Below, piece by piece: positions 1 to 27,626 of a stretch of DNA of 41,636 bases. Under the pieces are notes generated by a model. The model searched no databases. It had not been told where the DNA came from and was given only the letters and a program-made list of their open reading frames with translations. How positions within the stretch are numbered: the first letter of the stretch is position 1; every line of letters begins with the position of its first letter. Made by a program: the position numbers and the translations under genes. Source of the DNA: a virus. Its lineage: Duplodnaviria; Heunggongvirae; Uroviricota; Caudoviricetes. Where the stretch lies: the IMG/VR virus record IMGVR_UViG_2908567220_000009; one strand, given 5' to 3'.

Positions 1-1
1 A

Positions 2-5478: not shown

Positions 5479-5537
5479 ATTATCTGCTTTAAATATATTA
5501 TTAAAATATAAAAAATACTTGTTACTAATAAAATCAA

Positions 5538-5927: not shown

Positions 5928-6143
5928 ATGAAATCAATGGATAAGTTAACAACAGGTGTTGCCTATGGCACATCGGCGGGTAATGCTGGTTTCTGGGCAT
6001 TGCAGTTACTCGATAAAGTAACTCCGTCACAGTGGGCTGCAATCGGTGTGCTGGGTAGCCTGGTTTTTGGCCTGCTGACGTATCTGACAAATCTTTATTT
6101 CAAGATTAAAGAAGACAGGCGTAAGGCTGCGAGAGGAGAGTAA
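5928..6143 (+). CDS. essQ: pinholin (phage 21 S21-type class II holin) with dual-start motif
   Basis: [71 protein letters not shown]: two TMDs and a charged C-terminus. Met1 and Met4 give the 71/68-aa antiholin/holin pair as I recall for S21. GAGGAT RBS upstream of 5928. Confidence 0.85.
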
Positions 6144-6147
6144 TCCA

Positions 6148-6455
6148 ATGACTCAAGACTATGAACTGGTTGTGAAAGGAGTCCGTAATTTTGAGAATAA
6201 AGTTACGGTAACTGTAGCCTTACAGGACAAAGAACGCTTTGACGGTGAAATTTTTGGCCTGGATGTCGCCATGGACCGTGTTGAAGGAGCTGCGCTGGAG
6301 TTTTATGAGGCAGCAGCCAGAATGAGCGTCCGGCAAGTCTTCCTGGAAGTAGCAGAAAAATTGTCAGAAAAAGTTGAGTCTTATCTGCAGCATCAGTACT
6401 CCTTTAAGATTGAAAATCCTGCCAATAAGCACGAGCGTCCTCATCATAAATATCT

Positions 6456-6459
<4 letters not shown>
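6148..6459 (+). CDS. ydfR: Qin-type prophage protein of unknown function (YdfR-like)
   Basis: 103-aa ORF between holin and endolysin with a good RBS (GAGAGGAG); its stop overlaps the endolysin start (ATGA). Confidence 0.65.
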
Positions 6460-7483
<1,024 letters not shown>

Positions 7484-7846
7484 ATTAATATTAAATCGGA
7501 TTATTTTTAGCGCTGAATGTGAAATTTAAATAAAAAGGACTCTTCCATGAGTCAAAATCCTTGAAATCTTAAGGGTAAGATAAAAGGTCATTAGACAGAA
7601 TGACACGTTTTATTAATAAATAAAGCTATTGTTTCATTCGTGTGTTTTTCTTTACAAAAGTAATCCTTGCTATGGTTGGTTAATCATGCGTTAATGGTGT
7701 TCTGGTTTGTTACAAAATTATCTGAAGCAGTCATTGTTATAATTTTATTATTTGTACCTCTTGAGATTTCCTTGTTGGTTTTTCTCTCTGATATTTTTTT
7801 TCGGACCATTCTGCCCAAGGGCTAACTTCTTCAAAAGGTAATAATG

Positions 7847-8059
7847 ATGTCTAACAAAATGACTGGTTTAGTGAAATGGTTTAACCCTGAAAAAGGTTTT
7901 GGTTTCATCACGCCGAAAGATGGTAGCAAAGATGTGTTTGTGCATTTCTCAGCTATTCAGAGCAACGATTTCAAAACGTTAACTGAGAATCAGGAAGTCG
8001 AATTTGGTATTGAGAACGGACCTAAAGGCCCTGCAGCTGTTCATGTAGTGGCACTTTGA
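7847..8059 (+). CDS. cspI: cold-shock protein, CspA family (CspI-like, 70 aa)
   Basis: [45 protein letters not shown]...; long AT-rich 5' leader (7484-7846) as in cspA-family genes; position after Rz as in Qin. Confidence 0.85.
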
Positions 8060-8266
8060 GGTAGAAAATATTACAAACCATATTCACTTTAGATGCCCGT
8101 GTTGCCATGGTTCTCAGTATAGAACATCATCTTTTGATGTTTCTGACAGAAATCCTTTCGGGGCAAAATGTATCTTTTGTAAATCAATGATGATTACATT
8201 TGATAATATTTCACAATACTTAAATGTTAGCCATCTGTCGTTAGATTTAAGAAAGTGAAAATGAAG

Positions 8267-8286
8267 GCTCCTTCGGGAGCTTTTTT
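8267..8286 (+). terminator. rho-independent terminator
   Basis: GCTCC-TTCG-GGAGC hairpin followed by TTTTTT, downstream of cspI. Confidence 0.6.
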
Positions 8287-8330
8287 GCTTAGTGTCTAGT
8301 CGATGGATACTCACATATTACGGTAACATT

Positions 8331-8561
8331 ATGAAAAAAATAATAGTTTTTTTTAACTCTGAACCAGCAATGGTAGTGCCAGTGATGACCGGAGTTAACA
8401 CCATCATGCGTGAATATCCAAATGGCGAAACAACACACCTCACTGTAATGGCTGCAGGGTTTCCATCTCTGACCGGAGATCATAAAGTCATTTATGTAGC
8501 AGCGGATCGACATGTAACTTCAGAAGAAATTCTGGAAGCAGCAATGAGACTCTTGAATTGA
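8331..8561 (+). CDS. ynfN: small Qin-type protein (YnfN-like)
   Basis: 76 aa from MKKIIVFFNSEPAMVV...; located between cspI and gnsB as in K-12 Qin. Start and symbol uncertain. Confidence 0.45.
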   Translation: MKKIIVFFNSEPAMVVPVMTGVNTIMREYPNGETTHLTVMAAGFPSLTGDHKVIYVAADRHVTSEEILEAAMRLLN

Positions 8562-8733
8562 TTTGATTCTAATGCATTGATAATAAATGATAATCATCTT
8601 TATCTGTTTGTGTGAAATTTAGACCGTCGTATGTTGATTATTGCGATGTTTCATCTTATCTTTTATACGTTTGCTCCATATAATTGACACTACTGTGTAC
8701 CAGGACAGTCATAACAGACTAAAAGAGGAAATG

Positions 8734-8907
8734 ATGAACATTGAAGAGTTAAAAACAAAAACAGAAGCAGATATTTCTGAATATATAACAAAAAAAATCA
8801 TTGAGCTTAAGAAAAAGACCGGGAAAGAAGTTACCAGTATCCAGTTTACTGCACGGGAAAAAATGACTGGTCTTGAAAGCTATGATATCAAGATTGATTT
8901 AATCTAG
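8734..8907 (+). CDS. gnsB: GnsA/GnsB family protein
   Basis: 57 aa MNIEELKTKTEADISEYITKKIIELKKKTGKEVTSIQFTAREKMTGLESYDIKIDLI, closely resembling what I recall of GnsA/GnsB. Confidence 0.8.
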   Translation: MNIEELKTKTEADISEYITKKIIELKKKTGKEVTSIQFTAREKMTGLESYDIKIDLI

Positions 8908-9202
8908 CATGTTTATAGTATTAGCATCAATTTCTCATCAGATGCTATTCAACAATACAAATTACCCATAAACCTCGTTTTTACGGGGTTTTGTTATATT
9001 TAAACATTACCGAATAGATATAAATCTCGATTGTCGATGGTATTGGTTGTGTGACAATACCTAGTCTTTCCGGTATGCCTGAAGAGAATACAAACGACAG
9101 ATTATGTAAGGGAAACGCGCTGAAACTTTCACTCTTTCATGCTGAGTGATTTGACGTTATATTTTTAGCCGCAAGTGAAGAGCAAACGAATGGAGCGACA
9201 AA

Positions 9203-9500: not shown

Positions 9501-9511
9501 TGGATTTGCCC

Positions 9512-9826
9512 CTATATTTCCAGACATCTGTTATCACTTAACCCATTACAAGCCCGCTGCCGCAGATATTCCCGTGGCGAGCGATAACCCAGCGCACTAT
9601 GCGGATGCCATTCGTTATAATGCTCGAACGCCTCTGCAAGGTTCTTTGCTGCCGTTAACCCGTCTGGTTTGGGCATGATACTGATGTAGTCACGCTTTAT
9701 CGTTTTCACGAAGCTCTCTGCTATTCCGTTACTCTCCGGACTCCGCACCGCCGTGTTCTTCGGTTCAAGTCCCAACATCCGGGCGAACTGGCGTGTTTCA
9801 TTAGCCCGGTAGCATGAACCATTATC
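9512..9826 (-). pseudogene. insD: IS2 insD, C-terminal fragment (split by IS66-family insertion)
   Basis: Encodes ...[34 protein letters not shown]...[29 protein letters not shown], continuous with the N-terminal fragment at 12527-13129 once the insertion and one TSD copy are removed. Confidence 0.9.
9819..9826. repeat. 8-bp target-site duplication (CCATTATC) of the IS66-family element, left copy
   Basis: CCATTATC directly flanks both ends of the inserted element (9819-9826 and 12531-12538). Confidence 0.8.
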
Positions 9827-9911
9827 GTAACCGTCTCATTTAAACCGTCTTTCGCCTCCCTTTCCTGTTTCCGATACTAATGTCCATTTTCGCAGTAAAG
9901 GGACATTTAAG

Positions 9912-10562
9912 ATGAATGCACGAAAAGCGGTACTGGCAGACAATCCGGAATTGATCCTGCGTGTGCTACAGCTGAGATTTGACGAGTCACTGTCGTACCC
10001 GCGCATTTCTGCGCAGACCGGTGTCAGCAAAACCGCCATTTTTTCTCTGGTGAGGCGATTTCACCAGGTATTCACTGACTGGCCTCTTTCCGGTGAATAT
10101 TCCTGCGGGCAACTGGCCCGGGCTCTTTTCCCGGGGCGATACCCTTCAGCCCCGACCGTGACTCAGCCTGTGAAAGCAGAGAAACCCCGCCGGAACCGAT
10201 TTTCACCGGAGTTTAAATGGAGACTGGTTCAGCAAACTCTTTTACCCGGTGCCTGTGTCGCACAAATAGCTCGAGAGAATGGAATTAACGATAACCTGCT
10301 CTTTAACTGGCGGCATCTCTGGCGTAACGGTGGCCTGCAACCGCCCGGCGAACATGAAACATCGCTACTTCCCGTGACGTTAACTCCGGAGCCGGATAAT
10401 AAAATCCCGGCACCAGTGCAGATACCTGAACAGATAAATACACTGCCAGACAGTCTGTGCTGCGAGCTGGTTCTGCCGGCCGGAACTCTCAGGCTGAAAG
10501 GTGAACTGACACCGGCGTTATTACAGACACTTATCCGCGAAATGAAAGGGAGCAGCCACTGA
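9912..10562 (+). CDS. IS66-family accessory protein (orfA/TnpA)
   Basis: 216-aa ORF, first of three co-oriented ORFs inside the element; its stop overlaps the orfB start (ATGA). Confidence 0.75.
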   Translation: MNARKAVLADNPELILRVLQLRFDESLSYPRISAQTGVSKTAIFSLVRRFHQVFTDWPLSGEYSCGQLARALFPGRYPSAPTVTQPVKAEKPRRNRFSPEFKWRLVQQTLLPGACVAQIARENGINDNLLFNWRHLWRNGGLQPPGEHETSLLPVTLTPEPDNKIPAPVQIPEQINTLPDSLCCELVLPAGTLRLKGELTPALLQTLIREMKGSSH

Positions 10563-10909
10563 TGATATCTCTCCCTGCCGGTTCGCGTATCTGGCTGGTT
10601 GCCGGTATCACCGATATGCGAAATGGCTTTAACGGCCTGGCCTCAAAAGTTCAGAACGTCCTGAAGGATGACCCGTTCTCCGGGCATCTGTTCATCTTCC
10701 GCGGACGCCGGGGTGACCAGATAAAAGTGCTGTGGGCTGACAGTGACGGACTGTGCCTCTTCACCAAACGCCTGGAGCGGGGCCGCTTCGTCTGGCCGGT
10801 CACCCGCGATGGAAAGGTTCACCTTACTCCGGCTCAGTTGTCCATGCTTCTCGAAGGCATCGACTGGAAGCACCCGAAACGAACGGAACGCGCTGGCATC
10901 CGCATATAA
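10562..10909 (+). CDS. IS66-family Orf2 (TnpB-like)
   Basis: 115 aa MISLPAGSRIWLVAGITDMRNGFNGLASKV...; size and the conserved N-terminal motif fit IS66 Orf2. Confidence 0.85.
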   Translation: MISLPAGSRIWLVAGITDMRNGFNGLASKVQNVLKDDPFSGHLFIFRGRRGDQIKVLWADSDGLCLFTKRLERGRFVWPVTRDGKVHLTPAQLSMLLEGIDWKHPKRTERAGIRI

Positions 10910-10928
10910 CCCGTTGTAAAGTGAGGAT

Positions 10929-12500
10929 ATGGACACCTCACTTGCTCATGAGAATGCCCGCCTGCGGGCACTGTTGCAGACGCAACAGGACACCATCCGC
11001 CAGATGGCGAAATACAACCGCCTGCTCTCACAGCGGGTGGCGGCTTATGCTTCCGAAATCAACCGGCTGAAGGCGCTGGTTGCGAAACTGCAGCGCATGC
11101 AGTTCGGTAAAAGCTCAGAAAAACTTCGCGCTAAAACCGAACGGCAGATACAGGAAGCCCAGGAGCGAATCAGCGCACTTCAGGAAGAAATGGCGGAAAC
11201 GCTGGATGAGCAATATGACCCGGTACTGCCATCCGCCCTGCGCCAGTCTTCAGCCCGTAAGCCGTTACCGGCCTCACTTCCCCGTGAAACCCGGGTCATC
11301 CGGCCGGAAGAGGAATGCTGCCCGGCCTGTGGTGGTGACCTCAGTCCTCTGGGGTGTGATGTGTCAGAGCAACTGGAGCTTATCAGCAGCGCTTTTAAGG
11401 TTATCGAAACACAACGTCCGAAACTGGCCTGTTGCCGGTGCGACCATATCGTGCAGGCACCAGTACCTTCAAAACCCATTGCACGCAGTTATGCCGGAGC
11501 GGGGCTTCTGGCTCATATCGTCACCGGGAAGTATGCAGACCATCTGCCGTTATACCGCCAGTCAGAAATATACCTTCGTCAGGGCGTGGAACTGAGCCGC
11601 GCCACGCTGGGGCGCTGGACCGGTGCCGTTGCTGAACTGCTGGAGCCGCTGTATGACGTGCTGCGCCAGTATGTGCTGATGCCCGGTAAAGTCCATGCGG
11701 ATGATATCCCCGTTCCGGTCCAGGAGCCGGGCAGTGGTAAAACAAGAACTGCCCGGCTGTGGGTCTATGTCCGTGATGACCGTAACGCCGGTTCACAGAT
11801 GCCCCCGGCGGTCTGGTTCGCGTACAGCCCGGACCGGAAAGGTATCCATCCACAGAATCACCTGGCCGGTTACAGCGGTGTGCTTCAGGCAGATGCTTAC
11901 GGTGGTTACCGGGCGTTATACGAATCCGGCAGAATAACGGAAGCCGCGTGTATGGCCCATGCCCGGAGAAAAATCCACGATGTGCATGCAAGAGTGCCAA
12001 CCGACATCACCACGGAAGCCCTGCAGCGTATCGGTGAACTGTATGTCATCGAGGCAGAAGTCCGGGGATGTTCAGCAGAACAGCGTCTGGCAGCAAGAAA
12101 AGCCAGAGCGGCTCCACTGATGCAGTCACTGTATGACTGGATACAGGAACAGATGAAAACACTGTCGCGTCACTCGGATACGGCAAAAGCGTTCGCATAC
12201 CTGCTGAAACAGTGGGAGGCCCTGAACGTGTACTGCAGTAATGGCTGGGTGGAAATCGACAACAACATCGCAGAGAACGCCTTACGGGGAGTGGCCGTAG
12301 GCCGGAAAAACTGGCTCTTCGCGGGTTCCGACAGCGGTGGCGAACATGCGGCGGTGTTGTACTCGCTGATCGGCACATGCCGTCTGAACAATGTGGAACC
12401 AGAAAAATGGCTGCGTTACGTCATTGAGCATATCCAGGATTGGCCGGCAAACCGGGTACGCGATCTGTTGCCCTGGAAAGTTGATCTGACCTCTCAGTAA
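10929..12500 (+). CDS. IS66-family transposase (orfC/TnpC)
   Basis: 523 aa with an N-terminal leucine-zipper-like region, CxxC...CxxC zinc-finger motifs (CPACGG...CCRCDH) and a DDE-type core. Confidence 0.9.
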
Positions 12501-12526
12501 ATATCAATACGGTTCTGGCGAGCCGC

Positions 12527-13129
12527 TTACCCATTATCCGTCAGCCACTCCACTGGAGACGACGGAAGATCGTTGCCGAAGCGGCGTTCCACCGCTCCCA
12601 GCATGACGTCCTGTACTGTTTCACTGTTGAAGCCGCCGGTAGTGACCGCCCAGTGCAGTGCCTCACGATCACAGCAGTCCAGCGCGAACGTGACACGCAG
12701 TCTCTCTCCGTTATCACAGCAGAACTCGAACCCGTCAGAGCACCATCGCTGATTGCTTTCTTTCACGGCCACTCTGCCTGTATGTGCCCGTTTCGATGGC
12801 GGTACAGCAGGTTTTCGCTCAAGCAACAGCGCATTCTGGCGCATGATCCGGTAAACACGTTTGGCATTGATCGCAGGCATACCATCAAGTTCTGCCTGTC
12901 TGCGAAGCAGCGCCCATACCCGACGATAACCATACGTGGGCAGCTCTCCGATAACATGGTGTATACGGAGAAGCACATCCGTATCATCAGTGTGACGACT
13001 GCGGCGGCCATCCATCCAGTCATCGGTTCGTCTGAGAATGACGTGCAACTGCGCACGCGACACCCGGAGACAACGGCTGACTAAGCTTACTCCCCATCCC
13101 CGGGCAATAAGGGCGCGTGCGCTATCCAC
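12527..13129 (-). pseudogene. insD: IS2 insD, N-terminal fragment
   Basis: [34 protein letters not shown]...VEWLTDNG, ending in a stop created at the IS66 junction. Confidence 0.9.
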
Positions 13130-13452
13130 TTTTTTGCCCGTCCATATTCAACGGCTTCTTTGAGGAGTTCATTTTCCATCGTTTTCTTGCCGAGCAGGCG
13201 CTGGAGTTCTTTAATCTGCTTCATGGCGGCAGCAAGTTCAGAGGCAGGAACAACCTGTTCTCCGGCGGCGACAGCAGTAAGACTTCCTTCCTGGTATTGC
13301 TTACGCCAGAGAAATAACTGGCTGGCTGCTACACCATGTTGCCGGGCAACGAGGGAGACCGTCATCCCCGGTTCAAAGCTCTGCTGAACAATTGCGATCT
13401 TTTCCTGTGTGGTACGCCGTCTGCGTTTCTCCGGCCCTAAGACATCAATCAT
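13087..13452 (-). CDS. insC: IS2 InsC (OrfA, HTH protein)
   Basis: 121 aa from [41 protein letters not shown]...; the ORF track extends it upstream by an alternative start. Confidence 0.9.
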
Positions 13453-13543
13453 CTGTTCTCCAATGACTAGTCTAAAAACTAGTATTAAGACTATCACTTA
13501 AATAAGTGATATTGGTTGTCTGGAGATTCAGGGGGCCAGTCTA

Positions 13544-13548
13544 CAATT
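13544..13548. repeat. 5-bp target-site duplication (CAATT) of IS2, right copy
   Basis: Identical to 9496-9500. Confidence 0.8.
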
Positions 13549-13823
13549 CAACTACAGCAATGCCTCGTATTTAGGTGAATTTACAATATCGTCCAGTTCG
13601 GATGCCGGCTGCATTTCTGAAGATAAGGCATTTCGGTTCGCGTATTTTCCCCTCATGCTCGTCAGTCCTGCGCGTAGTAAGAAACAGGACACTCACACTA
13701 ATTTGTGTGGGCATGCTGTGATGTCCTTCTGAATTATCCCCATGCCATTATGTAAAGCTCTGTTTCAGATGCTCGTCACGGTTGTCAGGCTGTCGGGTCC
13801 TCCCAGTGGGGGTCCCTGCCACG

Positions 13824-13835
13824 GGGCGGGAGCGT
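13824..13835 (+). other. candidate cosN (cohesive-end site) of the prophage
   Basis: ACG-GGGCGGGAGCGT-CGCGG versus lambda ACG-GGGCGGCGACCT-CGCGG: identical flanks and 8/12 core matches. It lies 195 bp upstream of the small-terminase start; in lambda cosN is 190 bp upstream of Nu1. Confidence 0.55.
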
Positions 13836-14018
13836 CGCGGAAAAAGGCTAGTTTTTGCATTTCCATGGCGGCGGCAGCATGTTTGGTAATTTATTGATAA
13901 TTAAAGTTATTTATCTTTTCACCTGTACAATATTTTTTTCTCCCTGTCATTAGACCAGTTTACAATTAATTGAAATATATAAATAAACATGATTTTCACC
14001 TGCCAGATGGAGTTGCTT

Positions 14019-14546
14019 ATGTCAAATGTGAGCGGGATCGGTGATGCTTATTACTGGAGTGTTTTTAAAATCGCTGAGGCCTTTGGGCTTCACCGGGACA
14101 CAGTAAAAAAACGGCTTCTCGCGGCCAACACTCCTGTGGCTGCGACTGTCAGGGGGAACCCCGTTTACGCCCTGCAGCATGTCGGGCCAGCCCTGTTTAG
14201 TGTGAAGCATGAGGCAGCAGACTCTGTTCATGATCCATCCCGTATGGAGCCGAAAGAGAGAAAGGACTGGTACCAGTCTGAAAATGAAAGGATCAAGCTG
14301 GAAAAGGAGCAGCGAAAACTCATCCCCGTTGATGAAGTAGTCATCGTCTATTCGTCCATGAGAAAGGCTGTCGTCCAGGTTCTGGAGACAATTCCGGATG
14401 TTCTTGAACGCGATTGCGCCCTGACTCCTCAGGCCGTCGGCGTTGTACAGCAGGCAATTGATGACCTGCGATACACTCTTCAGGAAAAATCCTACGAGGC
14501 TTGTGCTGCTGAATTAATTCCTGATGAGGAAGGAGAGAGTCTCTAG
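14019..14546 (+). CDS. nohA: terminase small subunit (Nu1 homolog)
   Basis: MSNVSGIGDAYYWSVFKIAEAFGLHRDTVKKRLLAANTPVA... has an N-terminal HTH and sits directly before the terminase large subunit. Matches what I recall of K-12 NohA/NohQ. Confidence 0.85.
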   Translation: MSNVSGIGDAYYWSVFKIAEAFGLHRDTVKKRLLAANTPVAATVRGNPVYALQHVGPALFSVKHEAADSVHDPSRMEPKERKDWYQSENERIKLEKEQRKLIPVDEVVIVYSSMRKAVVQVLETIPDVLERDCALTPQAVGVVQQAIDDLRYTLQEKSYEACAAELIPDEEGESL

Positions 14547-14554
14547 GAGGAATA

Positions 14555-16653
14555 ATGGGTTTTTCATCAGCCCGAAATTTGGGAAGGGACATATCGGCAG
14601 GATTTTCCCCACCACGTCGCATGCCGATTTCGGAGGCTGTTAAAAAATTCATGCGTGTTCCCAAGGGGGCTGGTAACTCGGTGCCAGGGATCCTGAACTG
14701 ACACCCTACATCATTGAGCCCATGAACTGCCTGGCATCGCGTGAATACGATGCGGTGATTTTTGTTGGTCCTGCGCGAACAGGGAAGACCATTGGTCTGA
14801 TCGATGGATGGATTGTCTATACCATCGTTTGCGATCCTTCGGACATGCTCGTTGTGCAGATGACCGAAGATAAGGCCCGCGAGCATTCTAAAAAGCGCCT
14901 CGACAGAACGTTCAGAAGCAGTGCGGCGGTAAAGAAAAGAATGAGTCCACGTCGTAACGACAATAATGTCCATGATAAGACGTTCAGGGATGGCTCGTTC
15001 CTTAAAATTGGTTGGCCCTCGGTCAACATTATGTCGTCGTCGGATTACCGGTTTGTCGCCTTAACCGATTACGACCGTTTTCCGGAGAATATCGACAGCG
15101 AGGGTGATGGTTTCTCCCTGGCCTCAAAACGTACCACCACATTTATGTCCGCCGGGATGACTCTGGTGGAGAGCTCGCCGGGACGTGACATCTGCGACAG
15201 CAAATGGCGACGTAAGTCGCCTCATGAAGCGCCACCGACGACTGGTATTCTTTCCCTTTACAATCGTGGTGACCGCCGCCGCTGGTACTGGTCATGTCCG
15301 CACTGCGGTGAATATTTTCAGCCAGCCATGGATGCCATGACCGGCTACCGTAATGAACCGGATCCCTTTAAAGCCAGTGAGGCGGCGTATCTACTTTGCC
15401 CGCACTGCAGCGGCATTATCACTGCGGAGAAAAAGCGTGAGCTCAATAGTGCAGGAGTCTGGTTGCGTGAAGGTCAGGTCATTGATCGTAACGGCAACGT
15501 TTCCGGTGAACCGCGCCGCTCCCGTATCGCCAGTTTCTGGATGGAAGGGCCAGCTGCTGCGTATCAGACCTGGGCGCAACTGGTTTACAAATTACTGACT
15601 GCAGAACAGGAGTATGAAGCGACAGGAAGCGAAGAAACACTCAGGGCGGTTATCAACACCGACTGGGGATTGCCTTATCTTCCTCGTGCCAGCATGGAGC
15701 AACGAAAAAGTGAACTGCTTGAGCAGCGGGCAGAGCCAGTTCCTTCCCGCAGTGTGCCGGATGGCATTAATTTCCTTGTGGCGACAGTGGATGTGCAGGC
15801 GGGACGTCATCGCCGTTTTGTGGTTCAGGTAACGGGCTATGGCAGTCGTGGCGAACGCTGGATTATTGATCGTTACAACATCACGCAGTCATTGCGCAGT
15901 GACTGCGACGGGGAGAGCCAGCGAATTGATCCGGCCAGCTATCCGGAAGACTGGGATGTCCTGCTGACGGATGTTTTTCATAAAAGCTGGCCGCTGGCCT
16001 CCGATCCTTCTCAACAAATGCGACTGATGGCAATGGCGGTGGACTCCGGCGGTGAAGACGGGGTCACTGATAATGCCTATAAATTCTGGCGTCGTTGCCG
16101 TCGTGATGGCCTTGGTAAACGTATTTACCTGTTTAAGGGTGACAGCATCCGGCGCGCAAAACTGATCAGCCGTACATTCCCTGATAACACCGGACGAACG
16201 GGCCGCCGGGCGCAGGCCGCAGGTGATGTGCCGCTCTGGCTTCTTCAGACGGATGCCCTGAAAGACCGGGTGAATAACGCGTTATGGCGTGACTCGCCAG
16301 GTCCAGGCTATGTGCATTTCCCTGACTGGCTGGGGAGCTGGTTTTACGACGAACTGACGTATGAAGAGCGAAGCAGTGACGGGAAATGGAGTAAGCCGGG
16401 TCGCGGTGCCAACGAAGCTTTTGACCTGATGGTGTATGCCGAGGCTCTGGTCATTCTGCATGGATACGAAAAGATCCGCTGGCCGGATGCACCGGAGTGG
16501 GCGAGCCGGGAAACCTGGCTGGAGTGTGTCCAGGACAGTACCGAACCGTCATCCTCACCGGAACCGGTATCCACGCCTGTTAAAAAACAAAAACGGAAGA
16601 AAACAGTAACTGACGATGTTAACCCCTGGCTGACTTCCGGAGGATGGTTATGA
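14555..16653 (+). pseudogene. terminase large subunit (lambda gpA family) interrupted by a frameshift near 14681-14700
   Basis: ATG at 14555 with a strong RBS (AGGAGG) encodes 48 aa ending at a TGA (14699-14701). The remaining 643-aa frame (annotated from 14722, open from 14677) is displaced by one nucleotide. Homology to lambda gpA is continuous across the break (VPKGAGNS / RDPELTPYIIEPMNCLAS versus lambda LPKESAYQEGRWETLPFQRAIMNAMGS). Confidence 0.8.
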
Positions 16654-16862
16654 ACCAGAATGATATCGAAGCCATGATTCAGCGTTATACGGAAGCTGAA
16701 ATGGCGGTGCTGGACGGAAAATCCGTCACTTTTAATGGTCAGCAGATGACCATGGAAAACTTATCTGAGATCCGGCAGGGGCGGCAGGAGTGGGAGCGCC
16801 GCCTTGCGGCTCTGATTACACGACGACGGGGGCATCCCGGGTACCGGCTGGCGAGGTTCTGA
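16650..16862 (+). CDS. head-tail joining protein (lambda gpW-like)
   Basis: About 70 aa with C-terminus ...RRRGHPGYRL resembling lambda W ...RRRGPAGFYV; located between terminase and portal. Confidence 0.7.
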   Translation: MNQNDIEAMIQRYTEAEMAVLDGKSVTFNGQQMTMENLSEIRQGRQEWERRLAALITRRRGHPGYRLARF

Positions 16863-18370
16863 TGGCAATTCTTGATGATGTGATTGGCGTTTTTTCACCA
16901 GGATGGAAAGCGGCAAGGCTGCGTTCCCGTGCGGTGATCCAGGCTTATGAGGCCGTAAAAACGACGCGGACACACAAAGCCCGACGGGAGAACCGAACTG
17001 CCGACCAGTTAAGCCAGTACGGGGCCGTGTCGTTACGTGAGCAGGCCCGTTACCTTGATAACAACCACGATCTGGTCATTGGTGTATTTGACAAGCTGGA
17101 AGAACGGGTGGTGGGGAAAAACGGGATTATTGTCGAGCCACATCCGGTATTACGCAATGGGGCCATTGCCCGTGATCTGGCTGCGGAGATACGCACCCGA
17201 TGGAGTGAATGGTCTGTCAGTCCGGAAGTCACCGGGCAGTTTACCCGTCCGATGCTGGAACGTCTGATGCTGCGTACCTGGCTGCGCGATGGTGAGGTGT
17301 TTGCCCAGATGGTTTCCGGGCGCATAAACAGCCTGACGCCTTCTGCCGGTGTTCATTTCTGGCTGGAGGCGCTCGAGCCAGACTTTATTCCCATGACCAG
17401 TGATGAGAGCAACAGGCTGAATCAGGGCGTGTTTGTTGATGACTGGGGGCGTCCCGAAAAATATCTGGTGTATAAAAGCCGTCCCGTATCCGGACGGCAG
17501 ATGGAAACCAAAGAAGTGGATGCAGAGCGAATGCTGCATCTTAAATTTGTTCGCCGTCTGCACCAGATGCGCGGGACGTCTTTATTGTCCGGTGTGCTGA
17601 TCCGCCTCAGTGCTCTGAAAGAGTATGAAGATTCTGAGCTGACTGCAGCAAGGATCGCCGCTGCTCTGGGGATGTACATCCGGAAAGGCGACGGGCAGAG
17701 CTATGAAGCGGATGGTAATGGCAGCAAGGATAAGGAACGCGAGCTTACCATTCAGCCAGGCATTATTTACGATGATCTGAAACCCGGCGAAGAAATCGGA
17801 ATGGTGAAGTCGGATCGCCCCAATCCTAACCTTGAAACTTTTCGTAATGGTCAGTTGCGTGCCGTGGCGGCGGGCAGTCGTCTGAGTTTTTCCAGTACAG
17901 CGCGCAACTATAACGGCACTTACAGCGCCCAGCGTCAGGAGCTGGTTGAATCCACTGATGGCTACCTGATCCTGCAGGACTGGTTTATTGGTGCCGTCAC
18001 CCGCCCGATGTATCGTGCCTGGCTGAAACAGGCTGTGGCATCCGGTGTTATCAGGCTACCCCGCGATCTTGACCGTTCTTCACTGTATACCGCGGTGTAT
18101 TCCGGACCGGTGATGCCGTGGATTGACCCTGTTAAGGAGGCTGAGGCCTGGAAAATCCAGATTCGTGGTGGAGCGGCGACAGAATCAGACTGGGTACGTG
18201 CTGGTGGTCGTAATCCGGATGATGTCAAACGTCGGCGCAAGGCCGAAATTGATGAAAACCGCAAGCTGGATCTGGTATTTGATACCGATCCGGCCAGTGA
18301 TAAAGGAGGCAGCAGTGCCGCAACGAAACGACAGGAGCCGCAGCACACCGACGACCAGTCCGAAGAATAA
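16862..18370 (+). CDS. portal protein (lambda gpB family)
   Basis: 502 aa from MAILDDVIGVFSPGWK...; position after W and before the protease. The ORF track starts it earlier at an alternative codon. Confidence 0.85.
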   Translation: MAILDDVIGVFSPGWKAARLRSRAVIQAYEAVKTTRTHKARRENRTADQLSQYGAVSLREQARYLDNNHDLVIGVFDKLEERVVGKNGIIVEPHPVLRNGAIARDLAAEIRTRWSEWSVSPEVTGQFTRPMLERLMLRTWLRDGEVFAQMVSGRINSLTPSAGVHFWLEALEPDFIPMTSDESNRLNQGVFVDDWGRPEKYLVYKSRPVSGRQMETKEVDAERMLHLKFVRRLHQMRGTSLLSGVLIRLSALKEYEDSELTAARIAAALGMYIRKGDGQSYEADGNGSKDKERELTIQPGIIYDDLKPGEEIGMVKSDRPNPNLETFRNGQLRAVAAGSRLSFSSTARNYNGTYSAQRQELVESTDGYLILQDWFIGAVTRPMYRAWLKQAVASGVIRLPRDLDRSSLYTAVYSGPVMPWIDPVKEAEAWKIQIRGGAATESDWVRAGGRNPDDVKRRRKAEIDENRKLDLVFDTDPASDKGGSSAATKRQEPQHTDDQSEE

Positions 18371-18383
18371 TTCCTGGTTCAGG

Positions 18384-20342
18384 ATGCAGGCTGGTCACCA
18401 GAGTGACGCGGATATTTATATTTATGACGAGATTGGTTTCTGGGGTGTTACAGCGAAGCAGTTTATCAGTGATCTGAATGCACTGGGCGATATCACCCAC
18501 ATTAATCTCCATATTAATTCACCGGGTGGCGATGTCTTTGAAGGCATCGCCATTTTTAATGCGCTGAAAACACATGGTGCGTCCATTACCGTTTATGTCG
18601 ACGGTGTGGCGGCGTCAATGGCGTCGGTCATTGCGATGGTGGGAAACCCGGTCATTATGCCGGAAAACACCTTCATGATGATTCATAAACCATTTGGCTT
18701 TACGGGCGGTGATGCGGAGGACATGCGCACCTATGCCGACCTGCTCGATAAAGTTGAGGCGGTTCTGTTACCCGCTTATGCACAGAAAACCGGGAAAACC
18801 ACCGATGAAATTGCTGCCATGCTGGCGGATGAGACCTGGATGTCCGGTGCCGAATGTCTGGCACATGGATTTGCTGATCAGGTGACACCAGCCGTTAAGG
18901 CAATGGCATGTATTCAGTCAAAACGTACAGAGGAATTTAAAAAGATGCCGGAATCCATTCGAAATATGATTACTCCGCCACGCAACAGTGCTCCACGCGT
19001 ACAGGATGATGGACCTGCAGCCTCCCGGACGCCAGTGCAGGCAGCAGCACCCGTGGTGGATGAAAACAGCATCCGTGCGCAGGTCCTGGCAGAGCAAAAA
19101 GCGCGTGTAAACGGTATTAATGATCTGTTTGCCATGTTTGGCGGGCGTTATCAGTCGTTGCAGGCTCAGTGTCTTGCCGATCCTGAATGTTCGCTGGAGC
19201 AGGCCCGCGAAAAGCTGTTGAACGAGATGGGGCGCGAGTCCACGCCATCCAATAAAAATACCCCGGCTCATATTTATGCCGGTAACGGTAATTTTGTGGG
19301 GGACGGGATCCGCCAGGCGCTGATGGCGCGCGCCGGGTTTGAAAAAACCGAACGTGATAATGTCTACAACGGGATGACCCTGCGTGAATATGCCCGTATG
19401 TCACTGACTGAACGTGGTATTGGTGTTTCCGGTTATAACCCGATGCAGATGGTCGGTGCGGCGTTCACACACAGTACGTCTGACTTCGGTAATATTCTGC
19501 TGGATGTTGCGAACAAAGCCATTCTGCAGGGCTGGGAAGATGCCCCTGAAACCTATGAACAGTGGACGCGGAAAGGTCAGTTGTCTAATTTTAAAATTGC
19601 CCATCGTGTGGGTATGGGGGGCTTCAGTGCTCTGCGTCAGGTGCGTGAAGGGGCAGAATATAAATACGTCACCACCGGAGATAAACAGGCCACTATTGCA
19701 CTGGCGACCTATGGCGAGCTGTTCAGTATCACCCGTCAGGCCATTATCAATGATGATCTGAATATGCTGACCGATGTCCCGATGAAGCTGGGCCGTGCGG
19801 CGAAATCCACTATTGCCGATCTGGTTTATGCCATTCTGACGTCTAACCCGAAAATCTCCACAGATAATGTAAGTCTGTTCGATAAAGCGAAACATGCAAA
19901 CGTACTGGAGAGCGCGGCAATGGACGTGGCATCGCTGGATAAAGCCCGCCAGTTGATGCGCGTTCAGAAAGAGGGGGAGCGTCATCTGAATATTCGTCCT
20001 GCGTTCGTACTGGTACCGACGGCGATGGAGTCTGTTGCTAACCAGGTCATTCGCTCCTCAAGTGTCAAGGGGGCTGACATTAACGCCGGTATTATTAACC
20101 CGGTGAAAGATTTTGCGACCGTTATTGCAGAGCCTCGTCTTGATGATAACAGCCAGACCACCTTCTACCTGGCTGCGTCAAAAGGCTCCGATACGATTGA
20201 AGTGGCTTATCTCAACGGTGTGGATACGCCATATATTGATCAGATGGAGGGCTTCAGTGTGGATGGCGTGACAACGAAAGTGCGTATTGACGCCGGTGTC
20301 GCGCCAGTTGATCACCGCGGTCTGGTGAAATGTACGGCGTAA
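18384..20342 (+). CDS. prohead protease (ClpP/S49-like) fused to major capsid protein
   Basis: 653 aa from MQAGHQ.... The N-terminal ~200 aa are ClpP-like (HINSPGGDVFEGIAIFNALK..., GVAASMASVIAMVG); the C-terminal ~330 aa are capsid-like. A strong terminator follows. Confidence 0.8.
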   Translation: MQAGHQSDADIYIYDEIGFWGVTAKQFISDLNALGDITHINLHINSPGGDVFEGIAIFNALKTHGASITVYVDGVAASMASVIAMVGNPVIMPENTFMMIHKPFGFTGGDAEDMRTYADLLDKVEAVLLPAYAQKTGKTTDEIAAMLADETWMSGAECLAHGFADQVTPAVKAMACIQSKRTEEFKKMPESIRNMITPPRNSAPRVQDDGPAASRTPVQAAAPVVDENSIRAQVLAEQKARVNGINDLFAMFGGRYQSLQAQCLADPECSLEQAREKLLNEMGRESTPSNKNTPAHIYAGNGNFVGDGIRQALMARAGFEKTERDNVYNGMTLREYARMSLTERGIGVSGYNPMQMVGAAFTHSTSDFGNILLDVANKAILQGWEDAPETYEQWTRKGQLSNFKIAHRVGMGGFSALRQVREGAEYKYVTTGDKQATIALATYGELFSITRQAIINDDLNMLTDVPMKLGRAAKSTIADLVYAILTSNPKISTDNVSLFDKAKHANVLESAAMDVASLDKARQLMRVQKEGERHLNIRPAFVLVPTAMESVANQVIRSSSVKGADINAGIINPVKDFATVIAEPRLDDNSQTTFYLAASKGSDTIEVAYLNGVDTPYIDQMEGFSVDGVTTKVRIDAGVAPVDHRGLVKCTA

Positions 20343-20366
20343 ACGTCGCAGACAACAACTCTGATG

Positions 20367-20385
20367 GCCCGTAAGGGCTTTTTTT
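20367..20385 (+). terminator. rho-independent terminator after the capsid gene
   Basis: GCCC-GTAA-GGGC hairpin followed by seven T residues. Confidence 0.6.
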
Positions 20386-20428
20386 GTACCTGAAATCAGC
20401 CCCTGAACGGGGCTGTGCGGAGACAGTT

Positions 20429-20752
20429 ATGGCAAAGAATTTTGTAGAAGAAGGAAAAACGGTGGCGATTGTTGCCAGTGCAGCCATCAGCAGCGGAGAT
20501 CTGGTGCAGGTGGGCGATGTTTTTGCGGTGGCGCTGACCGATATTCCACAGGGTGAAACAGGCGACGGCATGACCGAAGGTGTGTTTATGCTGCCTAAGC
20601 TGAAAACGGATGACATGAAAACGGGTAAGAAGGTTTATCTGAAGTCCGGAAAAGTTCAGCTGACTAACAGCGGCTCTGATCCGCTGGTCGGGGTTGTCTG
20701 GGCAGATGCCGGAACCAGTGCAGAAGAAGTGCCGGTAAAACTCAATGTCTGA
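20429..20752 (+). CDS. small head-associated protein (putative decoration/cement protein)
   Basis: 108 aa from MAKNFVEEGKTVAIV...; RBS GGAG upstream; position equivalent to lambda D/FI between capsid and FII. Confidence 0.5.
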   Translation: MAKNFVEEGKTVAIVASAAISSGDLVQVGDVFAVALTDIPQGETGDGMTEGVFMLPKLKTDDMKTGKKVYLKSGKVQLTNSGSDPLVGVVWADAGTSAEEVPVKLNV

Positions 20753-21020
20753 TCCCTTTTCCCGGCTGGCAGCGCGTATGGATGCGATCACGGTCAGAAA
20801 GATGGGAAAGACAGCCTCGATTAATGATGTCGATATGACTGTGATCCCGGGAGAAACACTGGCAGAGCTGAATGCTCTGTCCGGACCTGCGGTCTCTCTG
20901 GTGGTGTTTTCTTCGGGATACCGCCCACGGCGCGGGGATCGCGTTGTTTATGACGGACAACAATGGACGGTCACACGGCATGAACGTTTTAACGGTAAGC
21001 CAATGATCTTTATTGAGTAA
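20745..21020 (+). CDS. head-tail joining protein (lambda gpFII-like)
   Basis: 91 aa; the C-terminal RRGDRVVYDGQQWTV resembles lambda FII RRGDTLTIGEENFWV; gene order fits. Confidence 0.6.
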   Translation: MSDPFSRLAARMDAITVRKMGKTASINDVDMTVIPGETLAELNALSGPAVSLVVFSSGYRPRRGDRVVYDGQQWTVTRHERFNGKPMIFIE

Positions 21021-21031
21021 AGAGGTGTGGG

Positions 21032-21610
21032 ATGAAGGGGCTTGAGAATGCCATCCGCAATCTGAACAGCCTTGATACCCGTATGGTGCCACAGGCCAGC
21101 GCATGGGCGATAAACCGTGTGGCACAGAAAGCGGTCTCGGTTACCACCCGGCAGGTTGCCGGGAATACCGTTGCGGGAGATAACCAGGTGAAAGGGATCC
21201 CCCTGAAACTGGTACGTCAGCGTGTCCGGGTGTTTAAAGCCAGTCCGTCAGGAAAAATGACGGCCAGGATCCGCGTTAACCGGGGCAATCTGCCTGCCAT
21301 TAAGCTGGGGACAGCCCGGGTCAGACTGGCCCGGCGTGGTGGAAAACTGCAGTACCGTGGCAGTGTGCTGAAGGTGGGTAAATATCTTTTCCGGGATGCG
21401 TTTATTCAGCAACTGGCGAATGGTCGCTGGCATGTGATGCGGCGTATTGATGGCAAAAATCGTTACCCCATTGATGTGGTGAAAATCCCGCTGTCCGGAC
21501 CGCTGACACAGGCATTTGAAGATGCCCGCGACCGCATCATTGCTGCGGAAATGCCGAAACAGCTGGGGTATGCACTGAAACAACAACTGAGGTTATGGCT
21601 GACCCGATGA
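21032..21610 (+). CDS. Z: minor tail protein Z
   Basis: 192 aa, the same length as lambda Z, in the position preceding U. Confidence 0.7.
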   Translation: MKGLENAIRNLNSLDTRMVPQASAWAINRVAQKAVSVTTRQVAGNTVAGDNQVKGIPLKLVRQRVRVFKASPSGKMTARIRVNRGNLPAIKLGTARVRLARRGGKLQYRGSVLKVGKYLFRDAFIQQLANGRWHVMRRIDGKNRYPIDVVKIPLSGPLTQAFEDARDRIIAAEMPKQLGYALKQQLRLWLTR

Positions 21611-22008
21611 ACCGACATACACAAATCCGCCAGGTCGTACTGGCACGCCTTCGGGAACAGTGTGGAGACAGCGCCACGTTTTTTGACGGGCTTCCGGCAT
21701 TTGTTGATGCGCAGGAACTGCCTGCCGTGGCGGTGTGGCTGAGTGATGCTCAGTACACCGGAAAAATGACGGATGAAGATGACTGGCAGGCTGTTCTGCA
21801 TATTGCTGTCTTCATCCGGGCACAGGCACCGGATTCAGAGCTGGATATGTGGATGGAGAGCACCATTTTCCCGGCCCTGAATGATGTACCAGCACTTTCC
21901 GGACTCATCGACACCCTGATCCCACTCGGTTTTAACTATCAACGTGATAATGAGATGGCCACCTGGGCGATGGCGGAAATCACGTACCAGATCACGTACA
22001 CGAATTAA
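21607..22008 (+). CDS. U: tail terminator protein U
   Basis: Strong similarity to lambda U: ...ATFFDGLPAFVDAQELPAVAVWLSDAQYTG...DWQAVLHIAVFIRAQAPDSELDMWMES.... Start overlaps the Z stop (ATGA). Confidence 0.85.
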   Translation: MNRHTQIRQVVLARLREQCGDSATFFDGLPAFVDAQELPAVAVWLSDAQYTGKMTDEDDWQAVLHIAVFIRAQAPDSELDMWMESTIFPALNDVPALSGLIDTLIPLGFNYQRDNEMATWAMAEITYQITYTN

Positions 22009-22018
22009 GGAGGTGGTA

Positions 22019-22762
22019 ATGACCACACCAAATCCACTGGCAAAAACGAAAGGTGCGGGAACGACGTTCTGGATGTATACCGGCAAGGGCGATGCGTTTG
22101 CGAACCCTTTATCGGACACTGACTGGCTGCGTCTTGCGATGGTGAAGGATCTGCAACCTGGCGAAATGACCGCTGATGCAGAAGATGACACTTATCTCGA
22201 TGATGAAGATGCAGACTGGAAAACGACAACCCAGGGGCAGAAATCCGTTGGTGATACTTCGGCGACGCTGGCCTGGCGTCCGGGTGACAGCGGGCAGAAA
22301 AAACTGGTTCAGTTGTTCGACTCCGGTGAAGTCTGCGCGTTTCGTATCAAATATCCCAACGGCACTGTTGATGTTTTCCGTGGCTGGCTGAGCTCACTGG
22401 GTAAAACCATTGCCTCAAAAGACGTGATGACCCGCACTGTGAAAATCAGCGGTGTGGGGCGTCCGTATCTGGCAGAGGAAGGCACTGAAACCGTGAGCGT
22501 TACCGGGCTGACAGTATCACCGGCATCTGCCAGTGTAAAAGTGGGAGCAACCACCACGCTGACCTTTACAGTAAAACCTGACGGAGCCAGTGACAAAGCG
22601 ATCAGTGTGCATTCGTCAGATCCACAGACTGCCACGGTTACCCTGAACGGACTTGTGGCCACGGTAAAAGGCGTGAAGCAGGGCAGTGTCAGCATTGTGG
22701 GCATGACCGCTGACGGGAATTTTGTGGCTGTGGCTGCGGTGACTGTCAGCGCAGCAGGTTAA
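22019..22762 (+). CDS. V: major tail protein V
   Basis: MTTPNPLAKTKGAGTTFWMYTGKGDAFANPLSDTDW... is near-colinear with lambda V, including a C-terminal Ig-like domain. Confidence 0.9.
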   Translation: MTTPNPLAKTKGAGTTFWMYTGKGDAFANPLSDTDWLRLAMVKDLQPGEMTADAEDDTYLDDEDADWKTTTQGQKSVGDTSATLAWRPGDSGQKKLVQLFDSGEVCAFRIKYPNGTVDVFRGWLSSLGKTIASKDVMTRTVKISGVGRPYLAEEGTETVSVTGLTVSPASASVKVGATTTLTFTVKPDGASDKAISVHSSDPQTATVTLNGLVATVKGVKQGSVSIVGMTADGNFVAVAAVTVSAAG

Positions 22763-22782
22763 CAGGACGATACTCATCATTT

Positions 22783-22806
22783 GCCCCGGTTATCCGGGGC
22801 TTTTTT
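22783..22806 (+). terminator. rho-independent terminator after V
   Basis: GCCCCGG-TTAT-CCGGGGC hairpin followed by TTTTTT. Confidence 0.65.
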
Positions 22807-22819
22807 GCAGGTGGAGAAA

Positions 22820-23209
22820 ATGATGTTTCTGAAACAGGACACGTTTAATTATGAAAAACAGTCCGTGGTGCTCAGTGAGCTGTCCGGGCTGCAGAGAATT
22901 GAATATCTGATGTTTGTTCAGCAACGAACGGCAAAGTTTGATGCCGGGGAGGGAGAACTGCCGGAGGCTGAACGACAGATTGCTTTTCTGCGGATGGGGA
23001 TGGATATCAATGCCTGGCTGGTTTCCCGCTCACTGTGGAATGCGGAACAGTCTCAGGATGTTGAGACGCTTTACGCATCCGTTATTACAACATGGTCGTA
23101 TGATGCCCTGGGTGCGGGGGCGGAGATGGTTCTGTCGCTGAGCGGTATGGGGGCCATTGATAATGCCGGGGATTTGGAGCATGAGGTGCTGACGCCGGAA
23201 AAGTCCTGA
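22820..23209 (+). CDS. G: tail assembly chaperone G
   Basis: MMFLKQDTFNYEKQSVVLSELSGLQRIEYL... resembles lambda G (MFLKTESFEHNGVTVTLSELSALQRIEHL...). Confidence 0.85.
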   Translation: MMFLKQDTFNYEKQSVVLSELSGLQRIEYLMFVQQRTAKFDAGEGELPEAERQIAFLRMGMDINAWLVSRSLWNAEQSQDVETLYASVITTWSYDALGAGAEMVLSLSGMGAIDNAGDLEHEVLTPEKS

Positions 23210-23217
23210 CGCGGGAA

Positions 23218-23547
23218 ATGCAGTTTGTCATGCGGCTTGCCCGGGAGTTCCGGCGGGCAGACTGGCGGCGGATGCTGTCGGAAATGTCGGCCACTGAGCT
23301 TGGTGAGTGGGGCGATTATTTCCGGATGCAGAGCTTCAGTGATGTGTGGATGGATGCGCAGTTTGCCTCGCTGAAGGCATTGATCGTGAGAATGGTGTCC
23401 GGCAGCAGTGATGCTGCGGTGGCTGATTTCAGCCTTTTACCGGAAGAGAACGGGATACCGGAGCGAACGGACGAAGAACTGATGCATCTTGGGGAAGGTA
23501 TTTCCGGAGGTGTGCGTTATGGACCAGATAGCCAACCTGGTCATTGA
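23218..23547 (+). CDS. T: tail assembly protein T frame (expected to be made as a G-T fusion by -1 frameshift)
   Basis: The -1 frame is open from 23185 and overlaps the G 3' end; a heptamer GGAAAAG sits at 23197-23203; the frame runs into the tape-measure start. Confidence 0.7.
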   Translation: MQFVMRLAREFRRADWRRMLSEMSATELGEWGDYFRMQSFSDVWMDAQFASLKALIVRMVSGSSDAAVADFSLLPEENGIPERTDEELMHLGEGISGGVRYGPDSQPGH

Positions 23548-26500
23548 TTTGGGGATTGATGCGGCAGAGTTTAAAAATGAAATTCCCCGTATCAAAAACC
23601 TTCTGAATGGTGCAGCCAGCGATGCAGAACGGTCTTCTGCCCGTATGCAGCGTTTTATGGAGCGTCAGACTCAGGCCGCCCGGCAGACAACGCAGGCGGC
23701 GTCTTCGGCTGCAACAGCCGCATCCGTCCATGCGCAGACGGTGGAGAAGAACGCACAGGCTCATGAACGCATGGCCCGCGAGGTGGAGAAAACCCGCCAG
23801 CGTATGGAGGCACTGAGCCAGAAAATGCGCGAGGAACAGGCGCAGGCCATGGCTCTGGCGGAGGCTCAGGATAAAGCAGCTGCTGCGTTTTATCGTCAGA
23901 TTGACAGTGTGAAACAGGCCAGTGCGGGGCTGCAGGAATTACAGCGTATTCAGCAGCAGATCCGACAGGCCAGAAACAGTGGCGGGATTGGTCAGCAGGA
24001 TTATCTGGCGCTGATTTCTGAGGTTACGGCGAAAACCCGTGTTCTTACGCAGGCTGAGGAAGAGGCTACCCGACAGAAAGTGGCGTTTATCCGTCAGCTT
24101 AAAGAGCAGGCAACCCGCCAGAATCTTTCTTCTTCTGAGTTGCTTCGTGCTAAGGCTGCCCAGCTGGGGGTAAGCAGTGCTGCAGAAGTGTATATCCGCA
24201 AAATGGAGCAGGCAGGAAAAGCCACGCATTCGCTGGGTCTGAAAAGTGCAGCGGCCCGCCAGGAGATAGGCGTTCTGATAGGTGAACTGGCCCGCGGCAA
24301 TTTAGGGGCGCTGAGGGGATCCGGGATAACGCTGGCTAACCGTGCCGGATGGATAGACACTCTGATGTCACCGAAAGGCATGATGCTTGGCGGGGTTATT
24401 GGCGGTATTGCCGCGTCCGTCTATGGTCTGGGTAAAGCCTGGTATGACGGTCAGAAGGAGGGGGAAGAATTTAACCGCCAGTTGTCGCTGACGGGGCATT
24501 ATGCCGGAGTCACTGCCGGGCAGCTGTGGACGCTCAGTCGTGCTATTTCCGGGAATGGTATCACGCAACATGCTGCAGCCGGTGTGCTGGCTCAGGTGGT
24601 GGGGAGTGGTGCATTTCGTGGAAACGATATCGGTATGGTGGCGAGAGCTGCCGCACAGATGGAGCGATCGGTTGGCCAGTCGGTCAGCGATACCATAAAT
24701 CAGTTTAAGCGGCTGAAGGATGATCCTGTAAATGCCGCGAAGGCTCTGGACAATGAGCTGCATTTTCTTACTGCCACTCAGCTTGAGCAGATACGTGTCC
24801 TTGGGGATCAGGGACGGTCCAGTGATGCTGCACGGATAGCCATGTCTGCACTGGCAGAGGAAACCGGTCGGCGTACTGCGGATATTGATAATAACCTCAA
24901 TGCGCTTGGCAGTACGCTGAAGTATCTGTCTGATTTGTGGAGTCGTTTCTGGGATGCGGCCATGAATATTGGTCGTGAAGACTCGCTGGATGAACAGATT
25001 GCCGCTTTACAGGAGAAAGTGTCGCGGGCGAAAAGACTCCCCTGGACGGCATCATCTTCTCAGGTTGAATACGATCAGCAGCGTCTTAACGATCTTCAGG
25101 AGAAAAAACGCCAGAAGGATTTGCAGGAAGCAAAAGAGCAGGCAGAGCGGAATTATCAGGAGCAACAGAAACGACGTAATGCTGAAAATGCTGCACTGAA
25201 CCGGATGAATGAAACGGAAGCAGCACGACATCAGCGTGAAATTGCGCGTATTAATGCCATGCAGTACGCCGATCAGGCTGTCAGGGATGCAGCGATACAA
25301 CGTGAAAATGAACGTTACGAGAAAGCCCTGGCATCCGGTAAGAAAAAAACACGCGAAACCCGTAATGATGAGGCCACCCGGTTATTGCTGCAGTACAGTC
25401 AGCAACAGGCACAGGTGGAAGGACAGATTGCTGCTGCAAGACAGTCAGCAGGCATTGCCACTGAAAAGATGACAGAAGCGCATAAACAGCTTCTGGCTCT
25501 GCAGCAGCGCATCAGCGATCTGGACGGGAAAAAACTGACGGCAGATGAAAAGAGTGTGCTGGCCCGTAAAGATGAACTGATTCAGGCACTGACGCTGCTG
25601 GATGTAAAACAGCAGGAGCTTCAGAAACAGACGGCACTCAACGATCTGAAGAAAAAAACAATTCAGCTGACCAGTCAACTGGCTGAAGAAGAGCTCGCTC
25701 AGCGTCAGCAACATGACCTGGATATCGCCACGGTGGGTATGGGTGATCAGCAGCGGCAGCGATATCAGGTACAACTGAGTCTTCGCCAGAAATACCAGCA
25801 ACAGCTGGAGCAGTTGAGGCGGGATAGTGAGCAGAAAGGGACATATAACACGGATGACTACAGAAAGGCCGAGCAGGCGCTGACGGAGAGCCTGAACCGA
25901 CAACTGAATGAGAATCGCCGTTACTGGCAACAGCTTGAAGTTGTGCAGGGTAACTGGAAAAACGGAGTCCTGCGTGCATTTCAGGATTTTACCGTGGATG
26001 CAGACAATACGGCAGGAACAGCAGAACAGGTGTTCTCGTCAGCCTTCAGCAACATGGGAAATGGCCTGGCAACTTTTGTCACTACCGGCAAACTCAACTT
26101 CAAATCCTTCACCTCTTCGGTGCTGTCAGATATGGCGAAAATCCTGGCGCAGGCAACCATGATGAAATCGATAAAAGGGATTGGCAGTGTACTGGGATTT
26201 GATCTCAGCAGCCTTTCCCTGAATGCCAATGGGGGGATTTATCAGTCTGCTGATTTGAGTCGTTACAGTGGCACGGTGGTTAACCGTCCGACGTTTTTTG
26301 CTTTTGCAAAAGGCGCGGGTGTGATGGGGGAAGCTGGACCTGAAGCCATTCTGCCACTGCGTCGTGGTGCTGACGGTAAGCTGGGGGTTGTGGCGGATAT
26401 TGGTGGTTCAGGTATGGCGATGTTTGCCCCGCAGTACAACATCGAGATCAATAACGATGGCACGAACGGGCAGATAGGTCCGGCTGCCCTGAAGGTGGTT

Positions 26501-26913: not shown

Positions 26914-26922
26914 GAGTCTCTG

Positions 26923-27621: not shown

Positions 27622-27626
27622 ATCCC

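Follow-up and report, generated by a model that had tools for sequence, protein, structure and literature searches.

A probably inherited one-base deletion that interrupts the large terminase subunit gene of a Qin-type lambdoid prophage

The window analysed here, that is, the whole stretch of 41,636 nucleotides of IMG/VR record IMGVR_UViG_2908567220_000009, carries a lambdoid late operon in which the gene for the terminase large subunit (TerL) is laid out in two reading frames (Table 1). An ATG at position 14555 opens an ORF of 48 codons, which ends at the TGA at 14699-14701 and whose codons begin at positions of 2 mod 3; a second ORF of 643 codons (14722-16653) follows one base back (1 mod 3), its frame being free of stops already from 14676. 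This arrangement, with the stop at that place, had been described in the initial annotation and is borne out by translation. Its count of 48 N-terminal codons holds as the length of the ORF, but not as native sequence, which comprises 44 codons followed by four (GILN) read out of frame. Gene callers give only the 643-residue part, whose first codon is the internal Met57 of a 699-residue protein, with 56 residues, and not 48, before it. The intact 699-residue genes begin with the same sequence as the 5' fragment. An exact look-up of the 48-residue peptide in a protein collection returned no match, probably because an ORF so short goes uncalled.

Table 1. Features of the window discussed in the text, by window position.
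Feature	Position	Strand	Description and basis
IS1	4067-4834	+	Between the exonuclease gene and cspB; repeats and comparison with 08-00022
IS2	9501-13543	-	5-bp target duplication CAATT
IS66-family (ISCro1-like) element nested in IS2	9827-12522	+ (its genes)	8-bp duplication CCATTATC; NCBIfam IS66 TnpA and transposase
DUF1441-family gene (NohA-like)	14019-14546	+	Small-terminase position, directly 5' of TerL; Pfam PF07278, E=1.9e-44; ORF-intact
Putative TerL pseudogene, 5' fragment	14555-14701	+	Strong Shine-Dalgarno (AGGAGG), ATG start; 44 codons in the native frame, then GILN out of frame and TGA
Lesion site	14686-14687	+	T that opens the Trp45 codon (TGG) absent between these bases
Rest of TerL gene, -1 frame	14687-16653	+	Codons 45 (GG-) to 699 and stop
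Walker A / P-loop GPARTGKT	14767-14790	+	Residues 72-79 of the intact protein; read from the translation
gpW-like head-tail adaptor, 70-aa ORF	16650-16862	+	Relatives' annotation; ORF-intact
Lambda-family portal	16862-18370	+	Pfam Phage_portal_2, E=5.8e-82; ORF-intact
IS1, second copy	38633-39400		Abuts the ydfI-like dehydrogenase gene
ydfI-like dehydrogenase gene	39478-40824		Fructuronate-reductase family
IS1, third copy	41244-41636		Inverted; runs off the window end

The break was placed by pairwise alignments with E. coli O121 RM8352, phage cdtI and locus L004, the alignment with intact terminases being the check that the initial annotation had proposed. Exactly one base is missing: where the intact relatives read GCC-A-TGG-GAT the window reads GCCAGGGAT, and in the wider alignment with RM8352 the intact TCGGTGCCATGGGATCC stands against TCGGTGCCAGGGATCC. 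In fact, in the first 240 bases the sole difference from RM8352, phage cdtI and other loci is that between the intact GTGCCATGGGATCC and GTGCCAGGGATCC of the window, the site being spelled GCCAGGGAT in the deletion allele and GCCATGGGAT in the intact TGG allele. The single-base deletion suspected earlier was thus correctly recognized, but not the G-run attributed to it, since the lost base is the T of Trp45, a non-repeated base which adjoins a GGG run, lies outside it and forms part of no homopolymer. Instead of an uninterrupted reading frame for the whole TerL protein, the window has a one-T deletion at codon 45 which leads to the stop at 14699-14701. At 14683-14692 the deletion removes an NcoI site (CCATGG) and makes a Dcm methylation site (CCAGG), the BamHI site (GGATCC) beside it being kept, which offers a simple restriction test for the allele.

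As regards the family of the protein, the GpA_ATPase profile (PF05876) is found in the 643-residue ORF with E=1.6e-73, over profile positions 19-247 only, and in the repaired protein with E=4.2e-80, positions 2-247 then covering residues 40-303, while the C-terminal GpA_nuclease domain (PF20454; E=3.7e-86) covers its full profile (1-294). The Walker A motif falls 3' of the break, and is thus kept in the 643-residue ORF; by BLASTP it pairs with KSARVGYS of lambda gpA. Pairwise BLASTP with lambda gpA gives 24% identity over 627 columns (E=7e-22) and begins only at residue 48, just past the break, and a residue-by-residue alignment to gpA across the break, as put forward in the initial annotation, is therefore plausible but weak when taken alone. 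Homology across the break is well founded all the same, since the Pfam GpA_ATPase match spans it and relatives with 99.9% identity read through it. Searched by sequence, the PDB gave no solved relative of the intact protein at E<=0.01.

The gene neighbourhood is that of the GpA family, with a gene in the small-subunit position upstream and a gpW-like adaptor and a portal downstream. The two-domain architecture (PF05876 and PF20454) and the synteny with W and portal are shared with lambda, to whose gpA about 600 residues can be matched with the Walker A regions aligned. The differences are that identity to gpA is just 24%, that the small-subunit position is taken by a DUF1441 protein, annotated in the relatives as a 175-residue protein, in which no similarity to lambda gpNu1 could be detected, and that the gene of the window, as read from its sequence, is a pseudogene: a member of the GpA family by descent and not a functional one.

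The intact gene has 2100 nt and encodes 699 residues. In a megablast comparison with 5,426 complete RefSeq E. coli genomes the region was present in 766, every top match being one base longer than the query, with 99.9% DNA identity to the intact genes. With a 60-mer centred on the site, all 754 matching RefSeq complete E. coli genomes were intact, every one of them in a 61-base alignment with one gap, and the T deletion was found in none of these 754. Moreover, Enterobacteria phage cdtI (NC_009514, orf2) and Escherichia phages Tritos and HannyBb, which are viable, have an uninterrupted TerL with 99.0-99.4% identity across all 699 residues and an identical N-terminus, their genes being ordered as in the window (DUF1441 protein, TerL, gpW-like adaptor, portal), and positions 13824-17021 of the window match bases 1-3200 of cdtI with 98.8% DNA identity. 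The genes of these phages are uninterrupted, whereas the window is without the T of Trp45, in a prophage without its early region. The homologs, with 699 residues, start at the equivalent of 14555, so that a protein truly starting near 14722, the alternative raised in the initial annotation, is refuted. When GTDB species representatives were scanned for both alleles, one intact copy was found, an intact E. coli-type terminase 35-mer on contig JAGZPX010000007.1; this contig is labelled 'MAG: Veillonella parvula' and probably reached that bin as contamination from E. coli.

The exact 643-residue product was found on at least 24 contigs. By inspection of the upstream DNA, the identical T deletion is present in four of these: CP024978.1, UASH01000005.1, UCUY01000059.1 (one among the matches listed, with 11 further similar places besides) and a scaffold of the ENA metagenome ERZ28629354. 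UASH01000005.1 and UCUY01000059.1 are isolate assemblies, and the metagenome scaffold differs from the window by 4 SNPs. CP024978.1, which is 100% identical to window positions 11722-19653 (7.9 kb compared) and probably the window's source, belongs to the porcine enterotoxigenic E. coli (ETEC) CV839-15, assembled from Illumina MiSeq and PacBio data in a hybrid approach (PMC5824013). The four carriers have, or end within, the same upstream IS2 insertion, whose junctions were established by comparison with L003 and JAPQPS010000061.1 as well as by direct reading, and which lies about 280 bp upstream of window position 13824, the equivalent of base 1 of the phage cdtI record. In UASH01000005.1 this IS2 is present without the nested IS66-family element, which gives the order of events. 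A deletion-specific 34-mer had no matches in JGI metagenome contigs.

These data bear directly on whether the deletion is a mutation or an error of sequencing or assembly, in which case the genome would truly read TGG and hold an intact 699-residue gene. One-base indels are the classic error of long reads, the deletion occurs in no RefSeq complete genome, and CP024978.1 is itself absent from the RefSeq complete-genome collection searched. Nevertheless, the same deletion is found in four sequences of different projects, one of them a metagenome scaffold with 4 additional SNPs, and the CP024978.1 assembly is a hybrid including Illumina data; moreover, the lost base is a unique T outside any homopolymer, which makes an artefact of the homopolymer type less likely. 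The shared IS2, the state of UASH01000005.1 without the IS66-family element and the SNPs of the metagenome copy point to a clade that inherited the deletion and not to a repeated artefact. An error is accordingly very improbable, and this alternative of the initial annotation can be regarded as effectively refuted, while its other proposal, a packaging ATPase inactivated in a decaying prophage, finds support in the four carriers, in their common upstream IS2 and in the divergence of one of them. In addition, it was observed that two unrelated short-read Logan contigs, ERR11525705_4873 and SRR11848865_475, start exactly at the ATG equivalent to 14722, which suggests a branch point of the assembly graph just upstream, for instance between paralogous prophage terminase genes.

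The context of the gene is that of an element in decay. By its gene content and chromosomal position the window is a Qin-type lambdoid prophage, and it appears defective. Compared with the Qin prophage of strain 08-00022 (NZ_CP013662.1), positions 1-4066 match the int-xis-exonuclease segment beside rspB with 99.3% identity, positions 4835-9044 match the cspB-essD-ydfR-rrrQ-rzpQ-cspI-ynfN-gnsB block with 95% DNA identity, and positions 13953-31497 match the operon from terminase to gpJ with 98.6% identity. The marks of the Qin locus, rspB-int at one end, ydfI at the other and the block from cspB to gnsB, are all found in the window. A 200-nt direct repeat (4959-5158 and 7847-8046, 73% identity) corresponds, by alignment to 08-00022, to cspB and cspI, cold-shock gene paralogs carried as prophage cargo. 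The first IS1 marks the absence of about 11 kb of the Qin-type early region and has also removed 46 nt from the start of the exonuclease gene. In 08-00022 the missing segment holds ydfD, dicB, the immunity/repressor genes, relBE, hokD, ydfU, the antiterminator ydfT/quuQ and cspF, and its IS1-associated loss leaves the element without an immunity or replication region and without the late antiterminator. The ydfI-like gene beside the second IS1 is about 40 N-terminal codons short with respect to the NCBIfam profile.

When ORF lengths are compared with those of annotated relatives, the TerL frameshift is the sole ORF-breaking lesion in the late operon. The gpJ tail-tip ORF (29000-32398) falls short of that of 08-00022 by 84 nt (28 codons), in frame, the difference lying near 31497-31582, where the alignment with 08-00022 ends and beyond which identity is 93%; this suggests that the tail-tip and fibre region is mosaic. 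Between the end of the 1202-residue tail-fibre ORF and a pin-type serine invertase (196 residues, minus strand) there are about 270 nt, and no full tail-fibre-assembly gene is evident within 36731-37593, as might be expected of an invertible or truncated fibre segment.

The prophage of 08-00022 itself is a useful term of comparison. Both elements occupy the same chromosomal locus between rspB/int and ydfI, and share the int-xis-exonuclease genes at one end, the ydfI-like gene at the other and the block from cspB to gnsB. In 08-00022, TerL is intact, while the ClpP-capsid fusion and tape-measure genes are annotated as frameshifted (23762-25788 and 28965-32029) and an ISCro1 insertion lies at a different nearby site. 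In the window, in contrast, the capsid and tape-measure ORFs are intact, and the lesions are the TerL frameshift, the IS1 early-region deletion and the IS2 with its nested IS66-family element. Thus, the same prophage family decays at different genes in different lineages.

Besides an error, two readings in which the gene would still be of use have to be weighed. According to one of them, the two-frame layout would be functional, a programmed -1 ribosomal frameshift or some other recoding producing the full-length terminase. Phage late operons do offer examples of programmed frameshifts, and a -1 shift anywhere within 14676-14701 would restore the frame; however, this stretch (ACTCGGTGCCAGGGATCCTGAACTGA) has neither an X XXY YYZ heptamer nor a homopolymer, three heptamers further upstream run into stops of frame 1, and the layout is not conserved, a single frame being present in 754 of 754 RefSeq genomes and in all related phages. 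For contrast, the G/T slippery heptamer of lambda, GGGAAAG, was sought near 23200, and there was none at that position. Recoding is the least credible of the readings considered and can practically be dismissed. According to the other, a functional, N-terminally truncated terminase of 643 residues would be made from Met57 by re-initiation and retained, recurrent lesions at codon 45 being a sign of selection. The 643-residue ORF does retain the Walker A motif and both catalytic domains, it encodes the same protein in lineages with synonymous differences, and a second lineage carries an independent TGG>TGA change at the same codon. Nevertheless, the only Shine-Dalgarno before the ATG at 14722 is weak and poorly placed (GAG, with a spacer of 3 nt), the region of the late promoter and antiterminator is missing, and the N-terminal segment of about 48 residues is the one that in lambda gpA binds the small subunit, a statement which was not found, for gpNu1, in the open-access literature searched. 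Furthermore, the coincidence in codon is expected from the look-up by the 643-residue product and from the mutational routes, the portal gene of the TGA lineage is broken as well, and the 754 RefSeq complete genomes are free of both alleles. A working truncated enzyme is therefore hardly to be expected, with about as little chance as a sequencing error.

The second lineage consists of JAPQPS010000061.1 and Logan DRR634138, in which Trp45, equivalent to window positions 14687-14689, has changed independently from TGG to TGA. Its terminase gene has four synonymous differences, its portal gene is split or uncalled, and its allele is likewise absent from the RefSeq complete genomes. Since the contigs were retrieved for yielding the 643-residue product, the lesions that could come to light were limited to codons 1-56; in codons 2-56 there are 21 one-step nonsense routes, of which Trp45 accounts for two, and these are two of only three transition routes. 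A double change at Trp45 is thus expected from the mode of retrieval and from the share of this codon in the nonsense routes, and selection behind it, considered as a candidate, was rejected as unsupported once the routes had been counted. The boldest reading of the two lesions, behind which the other 643 codons encode the same protein in both lineages, is that loss of the N-terminal small-subunit-binding segment was selected, either because this removes a dangerous cos-cutting holoenzyme or because it leaves a domesticated, truncated ATPase-nuclease. If this were true, the cos-cutting holoenzyme would be dangerous to a host whose prophage can no longer excise, but such an origin is very doubtful, being rated at best slightly above the retained truncated enzyme.

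The best explanation is, with little room for doubt, that a real deletion, by which the Trp45 codon lost one T and which has been passed on by vertical descent, inactivated the GpA-family TerL of this Qin-type lambdoid prophage. Terminases of the lambda gpA type are at once the packaging ATPase and the cos-cutting nuclease. Ribosomes starting at the native ATG (14555) would reach the stop at 14699-14701 after 48 residues, and the ATPase and nuclease domains would then not be made, or would be made in trace amounts only from the internal Met57, in a product without the N-terminal 56 residues. The deletion would be one of several lesions. Since the prophage had already lost the region for immunity, replication and the late antiterminator, selection would have been relaxed, and the deletion most likely became established by drift. 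Directly observed are the deletion, the other lesions and the distribution of the deletion, which several independent sequences have and other lineages and viable phages do not; from this we infer both the loss of the packaging function and the neutrality of the mutation.

Several points temper this picture of inactivation. Decay is not uniform, since, judged by ORF length against annotated relatives, no gene is broken in the rest of the 23-kb morphogenesis operon, from the portal to the tail fibre. Re-initiation 20 nt past the stop could in principle give the 643-residue product, and another prophage could make good the defect in trans with a homologous terminase.

Taken as a whole, this is ordinary prophage decay, an event of an already known kind, and it matters little past annotation, where the locus should be entered as a frameshifted terminase pseudogene and not as a 643-residue 'terminase large subunit' (GenBank ATZ35100.1). 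The T deletion and the IS2, whether or not the latter contains the IS66-family element, serve conveniently to trace this E. coli lineage. Judging from its genes, the TerL lesion together with the missing early region would leave the Qin-type element of the CV839-15 lineage unable to package its own DNA, unless another prophage helps.
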